NCBI RefSeq assembly: GCF_003019035.1 | Contig: NZ_CP027447.1 | Reading direction: 5' to 3' (one strand) | Source of the DNA: Escherichia coli | GTDB lineage: Bacteria; Pseudomonadota; Gammaproteobacteria; Enterobacterales; Enterobacteriaceae | DNA length: 64,000 bases | In this document: piece by piece, positions 13,897 through 46,771 of the stretch | Layout of the letters: each line of letters opens with the position of its first letter | How positions within the stretch are numbered: the first letter of the stretch is position 1 | Translations under genes and position numbers: made by a program | Notes under the pieces: model-generated | Seen by the model: the letters and a program-made list of their open reading frames with translations, nothing else | What the model was told of the DNA's origin: nothing | The model's database searches: none

Positions 13897-14688
13897 ATGA
13901 GCAGTAACTTCAGACATCAACTATTGAGTCTGTCGTTACTGGTTGGTATAGCGGCCCCCTGGGCCGCTTTTGCTCAGGCACCAATCAGTAGTGTCGGCTC
14001 AGGCTCGGTCGAAGACCGCGTCACTCAACTTGAGCGTATTTCTAATGCTCACAGCCAGCTTTTAACCCAACTCCAGCAACAACTCTCTGATAATCAATCC
14101 GATATTGATTCCCTGCGTGGTCAGATTCAGGAAAATCAGTATCAACTGAATCAGGTCGTGGAGCGGCAAAAGCAGATCCTGTTGCAGATCGACAGCCTCA
14201 GCAGCGGTGGTGCAGCGGCGCAATCAACCAGCGGTGATCAAAGCGGTGCGGCGGCATCAACGACGCCGACAGCTGATGCTGGTACTGCGAATGCTGGCGC
14301 GCCGGTGAAAAGCGGTGATGCAAACACGGATTACAATGCAGCTATTGCGCTGGTGCAGGATAAATCCCGCCAGGATGACGCAATGGTGGCATTTCAGAAT
14401 TTCATCAAAAATTACCCTGATTCAACTTACCTGCCAAACGCCAATTATTGGCTGGGTCAGTTAAACTACAACAAGGGTAAAAAAGATGATGCGGCGTATT
14501 ATTTTGCTTCGGTAGTGAAAAACTATCCGAAGTCACCGAAGGCTGCAGATGCGATGTTTAAAGTCGGCGTCATCATGCAGGACAAAGGTGACACCGCAAA
14601 AGCGAAAGCCGTATACCAGCAGGTTATCAGTAAATACCCTGGTACTGATGGCGCTAAACAGGCGCAAAAACGTCTGAACGCGATGTAA
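13897..14688 (+). CDS. cpoB: Cell division coordinator CpoB (YbgF), TPR protein
   Basis: 263 aa with signal peptide, coiled coil and C-terminal TPR repeats; last gene of the tol-pal operon. Confidence 0.95.
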   Translation: MSSNFRHQLLSLSLLVGIAAPWAAFAQAPISSVGSGSVEDRVTQLERISNAHSQLLTQLQQQLSDNQSDIDSLRGQIQENQYQLNQVVERQKQILLQIDSLSSGGAAAQSTSGDQSGAAASTTPTADAGTANAGAPVKSGDANTDYNAAIALVQDKSRQDDAMVAFQNFIKNYPDSTYLPNANYWLGQLNYNKGKKDDAAYYFASVVKNYPKSPKAADAMFKVGVIMQDKGDTAKAKAVYQQVISKYPGTDGAKQAQKRLNAM

Positions 14689-14759
14689 TGCATAACACAC
14701 GACCAGAAGTCGCATTATTTCTGGTCGTGTCGTGCGAATCATAAGCAGTTGAGTGATCT

Positions 14760-42928: not shown

Positions 42929-42964
42929 CTTGTAAACCAAATTGAAAAGATTTAGGTTTACGAG
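42929..42964. promoter_or_regulatory. bio operator (BirA binding site) with divergent bioA/bioBFCD promoters
   Basis: Imperfect palindrome cttgtaaaccaaattgaaaagatttaggtttacgag between bioA and bioB. Confidence 0.85.
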
Positions 42965-45200: not shown

Positions 45201-45942
45201 TAAACAAGCCATTGCAGCGGCATTTGGTCGGGCAGCCGCGCACTATGAGCAACATGCGGATCTACAGCGCCAGAGTGCTGACGTCTTACTGGCAATGCTC
45301 CCACAGCGTAAATACACCCACGTACTGGATGCGGGTTGTGGACCTGGCTGGATGAGCCGTCATTGGCGGGAACGTCACGCGCAGGTGACGGCGTTAGATC
45401 TCTCGCCGCCAATGCTTATTCAGGCACGCCAGAAGGATGCAGCAGACCATTATCTGGCGGGAGATATCGAATCCCTGCCGTTAGCGACTGCGACGTTCGA
45501 TCTTGCATGGAGCAATCTCGCGGTGCAGTGGTGCGGTAATTTATCCACGGCACTTCGCGAGCTGTATCGCGTGGTGCGCCCCGGAGGCGTGGTCGCGTTT
45601 ACCACGCTGGTGCAGGGATCGCTCCCTGAATTACATCAGGCGTGGCAGGCGGTGGACGAGCGCCCGCATGCTAATCGCTTTTTACCGCCAGATGAAATCG
45701 AACAGTCGCTGAACGGCCTGCATTATCAACATCATATTCAGCCCATCACGCTGTGGTTTGATGATGCGCTCAGTGCCATGCGTTCGCTGAAAGGCATCGG
45801 TGCCACGCATCTTCATGAAGGGCGCGACCCGCGGATATTAACGCGTTCGCAGTTGCAGCGATTGCAACTGGCCTGGCCACAAAAACAGGGGCGATATCCT
45901 CTGACGTATCATCTTTTTTTGGGAGTGATTGCTCGTGAGTAA
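45187..45942 (+). CDS. bioC: Malonyl-ACP O-methyltransferase
   Basis: [27 protein letters not shown]...; start trimmed to 251 aa; overlaps bioF end. Confidence 0.95.
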
Positions 45943-46612
45943 ACGTTATTTTGTCACCGGAACGGATACCGAAGTGGGGAAAACCGTCGCCAGTTGTGCA
46001 CTTTTACAAGCCGCAAAGGCAGCAGGCTACCGGACGGCAGGTTACAAACCGGTGGCCTCTGGCAGCGAAAAGACCCCGAAAGGCTTACGTAATAGTGACG
46101 CGCTGGCGTTACAGCGCAACAGTAGCCTGCAGCTGGATTACGCAACGGTAAATCCTTACACCTTCGCAGAACCCACCTCGCCGCACATCATCAGCGCACA
46201 AGAGGGCAGGCCGATAGAATCATTGGTAATGAGCGCCGGATTACGCGCGCTTGAACAACAGGCTGACTGGGTGTTAGTGGAAGGTGCTGGCGGCTGGTTT
46301 ACGCCGCTTTCTGACACTTTCACTTTTGCGGATTGGGTAACACAGGAACAACTGCCGGTGATACTGGTAGTTGGTGTGAAACTCGGCTGTATTAATCACG
46401 CGATGTTGACTGCACAGGCTGTGCAGCAAGCCGGACTCACTCTGGTGGGTTGGGTAGCGAACGATGTCACTCCACCGGGCAAGCGTCACGCTGAATATAT
46501 GACCACGCTCACCCGCATGATTCCCGCGCCGTTGCTGGGCGAAATTCCCTGGCTTGCAGAAAATCCAGAAAATGCGGCAACCGGAAAGTACATAAACCTT
46601 GCCTTGTTGTAG
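45935..46612 (+). CDS. bioD: Dethiobiotin synthetase
   Basis: [17 protein letters not shown]-loop; GTG start overlapping bioC stop; 225 aa. Confidence 0.95.
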
Positions 46613-46771
46613 CCATCCTGTATTTGGTTAAATTGCGAGCGAGATCGCGTCTTCGGTTGACTGCAATTTAACCAATTAAATTCTAAAATAATCACGAAAA
46701 AAATTTTACTTCCGCATCATGCGGTGGATGTGGGAATTGCCCAGGCGGCGGGGGATAGGGGCTGCAGACAG

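Follow-up and report, generated by a model that had tools for sequence, protein, structure and literature searches.

A lineage-specific inverted repeat past bioD in Escherichia: a probable RNA-level hairpin over a wider-conserved CRP-type dyad

The window analysed here, a stretch of 64,000 nucleotides of the Escherichia coli chromosome, carries the bioBFCD operon followed by uvrB, which starts at position 47191. Its intergenic region is 100% identical to that of strain SCU-172 and about 99% identical to that of K-12, whose coordinates are obtained by adding 766335 to those of the window. An inverted repeat follows the last gene of the operon, a smaller dyad overlaps it, and a pair of DnaA boxes lies further right:

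45935–46612, + strand: bioD, last gene of bioBFCD, with its stop codon TAG at 46610–46612
46624–46636, + strand: left arm, TTGGTTAAATTGC; the stem can be extended to 46621–46637, which takes in a U·U mismatch (46623) and a G·U pair (46637)
46634–46649, either strand: dyad TGCGA-GCGAGA-TCGCG, the Escherichia ortholog of a CRP-type TGTGA-N6-TCNCA; it contains the nested palindrome at 46639–46648
46637–46662, + strand: spacer of 26 nt, in which two 3-bp mini-hairpins are possible as RNA
46663–46675, + strand: right arm, GCAATTTAACCAA; the stem can be extended to 46662–46678
46771–46795, either strand: head-to-head DnaA-box pair GTTATCCAC / GTGGATAAC (DARS1 core, uvrBp3), 95 bp right of the repeat

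The 12-bp core of the repeat, TGGTTAAATTGC at 46625–46636 and its reverse complement GCAATTTAACCA at 46663–46674, belongs to a perfect pairing of 13 bp (46624–46636 with 46663–46675), and a repeat search returns 16-nt arms at 46621–46636 and 46663–46678 (94%). The 13-bp left arm begins 11 nt past the bioD stop codon, and the stem as a whole 8–11 nt past it. The original prediction had described a perfect inverted repeat at this place downstream of bioD, with 12-bp arms starting at 46626 and a 25-bp spacer. The repeat, its placement and the 12-bp arms are borne out; the 12-mer in fact starts at 46625, the perfect arms reach 13 bp, and the spacer figure was wrong, since 26 nt separate the 13-bp arms (24–26 nt depending on how the arms are defined). 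The nested palindrome that it reported, GCGA-GA-TCGC, is likewise present at 46639–46648. In RNA folds the spacer can form GCG-AGAU-CGC (46639–46648) and GUC-UUCGGUU-GAC (46649–46661), with a possible extra pair between G46637 and U46662. The repeat is followed by AATTAAATTCTAAAATAATC, and the stem directly by AAUUAAAUUCUAAAAU; no T-run is present. On the − strand, an open reading frame of 69 aa (46486–46695) spans the repeat and overlaps bioD in antisense. The name ybhU was formerly given to another − strand ORF, close to the uvrB promoters and clear of the repeat.

Long perfect repeats of this kind exceed chance in the window. Perfect inverted repeats of at least 12 bp with spacers of 3–40 nt occur at four loci, against 0.17 expected from first-order Markov simulations, an enrichment of about 20-fold, and a 13-bp flanking repeat is attained in 0.5% of local shuffles. 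The other three are all intergenic and stand at gene ends or terminator-like positions: those at 14697–14730 and 49220–49248 lie directly past stop codons, both without a T-run, and the one at 8916–8953 has the A-run/hairpin/T-run form of a two-way terminator. Folding the bioD 3' region, a check proposed with the original prediction, gave a 62-nt hairpin of −20.9 kcal/mol as + strand RNA (z −3.6). The − strand RNA folds at −19.8 kcal/mol (z −5.0) and the DNA at −14.5 kcal/mol (z −4.7), while a wider 121-nt fold reaches a z of just −0.9. Five Escherichia variants of the hairpin give z values from −3.6 to −4.5.

Copy number separates the repeat from mobile and dispersed elements. A 78-nt query, searched in sensitive mode (11-nt word, E up to 10) against 5426 complete E. 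coli genomes, is found at one place per genome in 5424 of them (median 1), and the 12-mer, whose further copies the original prediction had also proposed to seek, occurs in the 64-kb window at its two sites alone. Rfam covariance models run over 46000–47400 with E up to 10 return matches that all have E > 1; mir-7957, for example, reaches 19 bits where the gathering score is 76. The flanks, TAT and TTA, form no target-site duplication, and relatives carry orthologous sequence of the same length with no empty site, which argues against insertion as the origin. The original prediction had allowed for a remnant of a small mobile element. The 13-bp terminal inverted repeats around a short interior resemble a MITE, but given the single copy, the missing duplication, the lack of an Rfam match, and an interior and left arm that are orthologous at the same position in other genera, this claim fails, and membership in a MITE-like or dispersed family (REP/BIME, ERIC, BoxC) is scarcely credible.

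Other familiar classes fit poorly as well. A second BirA operator was rejected: the true bioO lies at about 42931–42964, the arms agree with a half-site at only 5 of its 9 positions, stand in everted order and are spaced 26 nt apart, and a search with the pattern TTGTAAACC-N16-GGTTTAC(A/G)A finds no second operator. A scan by eye for the IHF consensus gave no match. Extrusion as a cruciform seems unlikely given the 26-nt spacer, with the DNA fold at the −14.5 kcal/mol given above. As for RNase III, whose substrates offer about two turns (about 20 bp) of near-perfect double-stranded RNA, the repeat has 16–17 stacked pairs with one U·U mismatch.

The comparative set comprises 80 loci that encode BioD relatives, with each species represented by a single genome; 74 of the loci include uvrB. 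The conservation check on close relatives divides them: the arms are present in all Escherichia sampled (E. coli lineages, the cryptic clades, E. whittamii and E. albertii) and absent from every non-Escherichia genus in the set. At the orthologous site outside Escherichia, flanking repeats reach 5–6 bp, against a shuffle mean of about 5.6. A family-wide enclosing stem, at which the folds of several Citrobacter hinted, was set aside, as these flanking repeats are at shuffle level.

The two arms appear to differ in age. The left arm matches its Citrobacter ortholog at 10 of 13 positions, and Leclercia and Pluralibacter have the similar TGGTTAAAATG; because of this similarity it is, on the alignments, the older and nearly ancestral arm. 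The right arm aligns with CTTCGTTAGCTGA of other genera at 5 of 13 positions for Citrobacter and, by eye, about 9 of 13 for Salmonella, and this low identity marks it as the probable derived arm. It overlies a block that is strongly conserved in other genera, GTTAGCTGATAAAAATCAAAA...TAGCGATAA, where a TGAT-N4-ATCA dyad stands with a −10-like GATAAT or TATAAA. The Escherichia segment has diverged from this block without any change in length. We infer that in the Escherichia ancestor the right side was altered until it was complementary to the left, by stepwise selection or by template-switch correction. Intrastrand template-switch mutation corrects quasi-palindromes, a process reportedly described in the work of Ripley and of Lovett and by Monttinen and Loytynoja in 2022. 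A perfect repeat confined to one clade, with clustered differences in one arm and unchanged length, resembles such a corrected quasi-palindrome; by contrast, part of the right arm has an intermediate look in Salmonella, as stepwise substitution would also produce.

Variation within Escherichia was followed in an alignment of 12 sequences (A2), in which 96.9% of the outer-stem cells are paired. The pair 46636–46663 passes from C-G through U·G to U-A along one path. U·G is a common haplotype, found in UPEC 26-1 and in about 17 of 76 E. coli-like metagenome copies, and U-A occurs in strain Z1323 and in locus L194. This is the one compensated pair seen; it lies in a rare haplotype and could be due to chance. 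Among one-sided changes, five leave a G·U pair on the + strand (A·C on the − strand) and one leaves a G·U pair on the − strand; because of these five against one, the bias favours + strand RNA. About five further changes, roughly half of the arm substitutions, break pairs (L004, L005, L007 and L140). Measured against shuffle controls, covariation is not exceptional: paired cells amount to 95.5% versus 94.7%, with 80 of 500 shuffles reaching the observed value, and the observed double changes are reached in 150 of 500 shuffles, so that the controls are not exceeded.

In A2 about 7 of the 26 arm columns vary, compared with about 14 of 26 for the spacer and 9 of 26 for the right flank. Within Escherichia, variation is greatest in the 3' half of the spacer, and the arms are modestly less variable than this half and than the right flank. 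In E. albertii, 2 of the 26 arm positions are changed, both to G·U, as are 6 of the 26 in the spacer.

The nested dyad has a different and wider history. In 50 of the 74 loci the uvrB ATG is preceded, at −553 to −561, by the motif AAAATG[C/T]GAGCAAGATCTCG, and the dyad reads TGTGA-N6-TCNCA, with conserved half-sites around six freely varying bases. It is found in Escherichia (at −557 in E. coli), Citrobacter, Salmonella, Enterobacter, Leclercia, Kosakonia, Phytobacter, Pluralibacter and Siccibacter. It is matched in 46 non-Escherichia loci, 20 distinct sequences carrying the strict TGTGA-N6-TCNCA, and some genera have perfect or near-perfect CRP cores (L040 TGTGACCCAAATCACA, L050 CGTGAATGAAATCACG). 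Because the half-sites are fixed in sequence while the six central bases are free, this is what a site for a dimeric protein would show and an RNA stem would not. The distance to uvrB is the same in both gene arrangements, with bioD abutting or with a gene in between; in some genera this intervening gene is a − strand, UrtE/LivF-like orphan ABC-ATPase of about 720 bp. Since the dyad is kept whether or not bioD adjoins, it marks the edge of the uvrB/DARS1 block and is not a feature of bioD. By the alignments it is the left edge of a length-conserved block of about 560 bp that holds DARS1 and the uvrB promoters.

The consensus of cAMP-CRP is AAATGTGATCTAGATCACATTT, with the core TGTGA-N6-TCACA. 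Like a cAMP-CRP site, the Escherichia dyad spans 16 bp with 6-bp spacing, keeps the key G and C (TGnGA-N6-TCnCn) and has an A-rich 5' flank, and its orthologs in other genera match TGTGA-N6-TCNCA, some of them perfectly. Unlike one, the Escherichia copy, which is predicted from sequence, is degenerate (TGCGA/TCGCG, 7 of 10 core positions, a loose-pattern match at chance frequency), and no promoter lies at class I or class II distance. With the centre at about −41.5, −61.5 or −72, no suitable −10 is found in Escherichia, and TAAAAT at 46684–46689 would give about −55. In other genera the −10-like GATAAT or TATAAA is compatible with about −61.5 by hand count. The protein-binding site that the original prediction had raised for the repeat thus survives for the nested palindrome only, on comparative evidence of a CRP-type dyad at a fixed distance from uvrB.

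Published work places DARS1 in the bioD-uvrB spacer, with DnaA boxes overlapping the promoter uvrBp3, and reports that a DARS1 core of 70–101 bp suffices for ADP release in vitro and needs no accessory factor. The repeat lies outside this core, as the region needed for ADP release, made up of DnaA boxes I–III and a 42-bp flank, lies at and right of the box pair. In the published ΔDARS1::cat strain the left homology arm of the primer ends ...GTAGCCATTCTGTATT. This end corresponds to position 46624 of the window, so the deletion begins at the repeat and removes the repeat, the dyad, the DARS1 core and uvrBp3. The original prediction had overlooked that the repeat lies in a region deleted as 'DARS1' in published work. 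The repeat resembles a part of DARS1 in lying 95 bp from the DnaA-box pair and inside the ΔDARS1::cat segment, and differs from one in lying outside the fragment of 70–101 bp that is sufficient in vitro; DARS1 itself is without a known accessory factor. In DARS2, IHF and Fis bind the flank and regulate the element, an example of a DARS core under the control of protein sites beside it. In the literature examined we found no published statement on the repeat or the dyad, and nothing relevant on bioBFCD termination or on DARS1 with cAMP or biotin.

For the outer arms, RNA structure is the best reading, and the predicted hairpin is probably an RNA-level feature. We interpret it as a 3' stem-loop of the bioBFCD mRNA that arose around a decaying CRP-type site and would serve as a barrier to exonucleases or as a weak terminator, and give this reading a probability of about 0.4. 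In a + strand transcript the outer arms of 13–16 bp would pair into a 3'-terminal stem-loop. Such a hairpin would block 3'-to-5' exonucleases and could thereby give a stable 3' end to transcripts stopped or cut further downstream, and it might in addition reduce transcription running on into the DARS1/uvrB control region. The right arm would have diverged until it complemented the older left flank of the ancestral CRP-type dyad, leaving the dyad in the loop. By its distribution, the predicted hairpin is an Escherichia-specific innovation.

The position suits an mRNA 3' hairpin, a stable sense-strand stem just past the last stop codon of the operon. In its favour stand the stability of −20.9 kcal/mol, the base rate set by the other three long repeats of the window, all intergenic, and, among the Escherichia sequences, the 96.9% of outer-stem cells that pair, the path from C-G to U-A at one pair and the five-to-one bias towards + strand G·U. 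Where additional DNA separates bioD from the conserved block in other genera, unrelated hairpins directly follow bioD, some with U-rich tails: in Salmonella GCAGGATC/GATCCTGC stand ahead of TGTTCTCT, the hairpin of Enterobacteriaceae bacterium 89 is a canonical terminator, and Pluralibacter and Kluyvera have hairpins too. From long-read data, a preprint assigns bioBFCD and uvrB to a single transcription-unit cluster; this implies read-through, as a weak terminator would allow.

Several observations weigh against this reading. None of three intrinsic-terminator features is present: there is no U-tract, about 4–5 of 14 pairs are G-C, the loop has 26 nt, and the terminator scan was negative. The judgement in the original prediction that this is not a canonical intrinsic terminator is borne out by these points, the stem being AU-rich, and lacking a U-tract and a GC-rich stem the hairpin would be at most a weak terminator. 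Covariation stays within the shuffle controls, about half of the substitutions in the arms disrupt pairing, and the one compensated pair could be due to chance. No 3' end at bioD was found in the Term-seq supplementary data examined; this is weak evidence, as the media concerned support little expression of the bio operon. Citrobacter amalonaticus, C. koseri and C. sedlakii share the adjacency of bioD and the block and show no comparable hairpin, and the − strand folds equally well. A Rho-independent terminator is likewise a hairpin downstream of a gene, and related genera carry terminator-like hairpins at the same functional position; the present repeat differs in having no U-tract, no GC-rich stem and no short loop (3–8 nt), and the reported read-through to uvrB fits poor termination. 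Closer parallels are protective 3'-UTR stem-loops and non-canonical terminator hairpins, including processed Rho-dependent 3' ends, which also lie past the last stop codon and are stable without a U-tract; the repeats at 14697–14730 and 49220–49248 of the same window are similar in these respects. The bioD stem departs from these in being AU-rich, in its unusually large, sub-structured loop of 26 nt that carries a conserved protein-type dyad, and in being known from sequence alone.

The main alternative is that the hairpin has no function: a weak quasi-palindrome beside the dyad would have been perfected in the Escherichia ancestor, for instance by a template switch, and would since have decayed slowly. 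We consider this possible though less probable than a 3' stem-loop. Confinement of the repeat to Escherichia, with 5–6 bp at shuffle level elsewhere, agrees with such an origin, as does a right arm that differs from outgroups at many adjacent positions at unchanged length beside a nearly ancestral left arm. Within the genus roughly every second substitution in the arms breaks a pair, the comparison with shuffles is not significant, arm diversity is modestly below that of neighbouring DNA (about 7/26 against about 14/26 in the spacer and 9/26 in the right flank), and the DARS1 core of 70–101 bp works in vitro without the repeat region. A neutral by-product does not readily account for the roughly 20-fold enrichment of long perfect repeats in the window, the other three of which lie at gene ends or intergenic terminator-like positions, nor for arms that are perfect or nearly so genus-wide, with two E. 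albertii changes, both to G·U, against 6 of 26 in the spacer. The bias towards + strand G·U and the one compensated pair also count against it. These last changes bear on the strand as well. A − strand RNA, in which the hairpin might be the 3' end of a leftward transcript from uvrB/DARS1, antisense to the end of bioD, would fold as stably (−19.8 kcal/mol, z −5.0); an RpoS-holoenzyme SELEX site and the former − strand ORF annotation ybhU lie in the intergenic region, and a small hairpin (CCGCAUGAUGCGG) and a U7 run precede the repeat on that strand. One-sided changes, however, favour by five to one the outcome in which the + strand keeps a G·U pair and the − strand is left with A·C, the promoter/terminator scan flags none nearby on the − strand, no U-tract follows the hairpin there, and no leftward transcript is reported at the repeat itself. 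We regard such a role as very improbable.

A third explanation moves the function to the DNA. The dyad would bind cAMP-CRP or a relative, the AT-rich arms would add sites for a nucleoid protein, and the whole would be a protein module flanking the DARS1/uvrB promoters that modulates DARS1 or uvrBp3. Such a module would explain why the dyad keeps its place relative to uvrB (−553 to −561) in 50 of 74 loci, why its half-sites are fixed around a free N6, and why it is retained independent of bioD adjacency, by which it belongs to the uvrB/DARS1 block. Outside Escherichia the −10-like GATAAT/TATAAA fits class I geometry (about −61.5, with hand-counted spacing), and the sister element DARS2 is under flank-bound IHF and Fis. 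The arms are conserved as sequence, beyond complementarity, and in each of them G-N13-C with A/T-rich middle bases can be read as a Fis site, although this is a very loose consensus on which to rest the match. In Escherichia itself the case weakens, as the dyad is degenerate (7/10) and matches at chance level, and the −10-like element and the TGAT-N4-ATCA dyad are lost. The centre of the dyad and the approximate uvrBp3 start are about 166 bp apart, beyond the reach of standard CRP activation, the centre-to-centre arm spacing of 39 bp matches no known operator, and DARS1 needs no accessory factor in vitro. In the papers examined we found no report of CRP, Fis or IHF binding here. We therefore judge the module unlikely for the Escherichia repeat. 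By a bolder extension, dyad and arms would form a regulatory flank of DARS1, with a cAMP-CRP-type site ancestral to Enterobacteriaceae and, in Escherichia, a hairpin or insulator against read-through from the bio operon; this flank would couple DnaA reactivation, and with it replication initiation, to carbon status and to transcription arriving from bioBFCD, controlling DARS1 as the IHF and Fis sites control DARS2; we hold this to be a long shot.

The 3' stem-loop of the bioBFCD mRNA remains our preferred reading, and the repeat is best described as a real, single-copy, lineage-specific hairpin of an ordinary kind, probably RNA-level, over a wider-conserved CRP-type dyad. Taken alone, it is one more 3'-end hairpin and of little consequence. 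Its surroundings give it more weight. Published DARS1 deletions take the repeat, the dyad, the core and uvrBp3 together, so DARS1 phenotypes are not separated from those of its flanks. The block of about 560 bp upstream of uvrB keeps its length across Enterobacteriaceae and starts with the CRP-type dyad, of which we found no description and which is a testable lead for a carbon-status input into uvrB or DARS1. A perfect hairpin that belongs to one lineage and lies over an older protein site would also be useful for studying how hairpins originate, by selection or by template switching.

The region upstream of uvrB is conserved as a unit. Across many enterobacterial genera (loci L003-L082, which encode BioD relatives, compared), it keeps a length of about 560 bp, corresponding to 46634-47190 in the window. 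A CRP-type dyad, TGTGA-N6-TCNCA, forms its left edge and lies constantly at -553 to -561 from the uvrB start codon, and the interior carries the near-invariant blocks CAGTTATCCACTATTCCTGTGGATAACC, GTGTATTAGAGTTAGAAAAC, AAGCGAGAGAATACGCGGC, CTTGACAAATGTTAAAAAAG and TGGGGATAACC. This conservation exceeds what the published core of the DnaA-reactivating sequence DARS1 and promoters P1-P3 explain. The following features lie within or beside the region.

46666-46708, equivalent of the GTTAGCTGATAAAAATCAAAAAATAGCGATAA(A/T)nTTTTTT segment of non-Escherichia genera (loci L009-L082)
46709-46736, hairpin-prone segment after the A7T4 run, containing CCGCATCATGCGG
about 46914 (older K-12 coordinate 812472), RpoS-holoenzyme SELEX site
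46779-46916 / 47152-47292, minus strand, small-ORF annotation ybhU
3665-4387 of locus L033, minus strand, orphan gene for a UrtE/LivF-like ABC-transporter ATPase of 240 aa

The GTTAGCTGATAAAAATCAAAAAATAGCGATAA(A/T)nTTTTTT segment is common to the non-Escherichia genera, where it sits about 25-65 nt to the right of the CRP-type dyad. It contains an FNR-like TGAT-N4-ATCA dyad and, at a distance of about 53-58 bp from the middle of the CRP-type dyad, a -10-like GATAAT or TATAAA. In these genera, the CRP-type dyad and the -10-like element look like a putative class I CRP-dependent promoter directed at DARS1 and uvrB. Escherichia has lost both the TGAT-N4-ATCA dyad and the -10-like element.

The adjoining segment at 46709-46736 can pair as UUCCGCAUC...GAUGUGGGAA in RNA (-12 kcal/mol), and on the minus strand a U7 run follows a small hairpin by 9 nt. 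Its sequence differs among genera while folding is often retained, with a mean z of just -0.8 over 35 representatives. In Citrobacter amalonaticus (L009 and L018), a long-range stem encloses an AT-rich block about 20-100 nt 3' of the bioD stop, and the two strains differ by compensatory changes, pairing CTGCCAGA-CGCGC...GCGC-TCTGGCAG in L009 and CCAG-GTGCAC...GTGCAT-TCTGG in L018.

In some genomes, bioD is separated from the conserved uvrB block by the orphan ATPase gene, whose UrtE/LivF-like match falls under the NCBIfam cut-offs. It is convergent with bioD, overlaps the bioD end, and is found at the corresponding place in Enterobacter, Klebsiella, Kosakonia, Leclercia, Phytobacter and some Citrobacter loci; among the loci compared, it is missing from Escherichia, Salmonella, Kluyvera and some Citrobacter.

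Other perfect inverted repeats in the window are as follows.

8916-8953, 16-bp repeat TAAAAATTTATGGGCC / GGCCCATAAATTTTTA, with an A-run on one side and a T-run on the other
14697-14730, 12-bp repeat directly after the stop codon at 14688
49220-49248, 12-bp repeat directly after the uvrB stop (49212), between uvrB and convergent yvcK

The two 12-bp repeats have short loops and no T-run, exemplifying 3' hairpins without a U-tract in the same window as the bioD repeat. With its A-run and T-run, the 16-bp repeat has the shape of a two-way intrinsic terminator.

Published data also bear on the uvrB upstream region. Among the RpoS-holoenzyme sites listed from genomic SELEX, one falls in the interval from 'ybhU' to uvrB, and a tiling-array study reports that ybhU, like uvrB, is UV-induced; the ybhU annotation is missing from the current RefSeq record. 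The delta-DARS1::cat deletion (Frimodt-Moller et al. 2015), spanning 46625 to about 47066 (K-12 812960 to about 813401), removes the bioD repeat, the CRP-type dyad, the DARS1 core and promoter uvrBp3 together, so its phenotypes are not assignable to the DnaA boxes alone.
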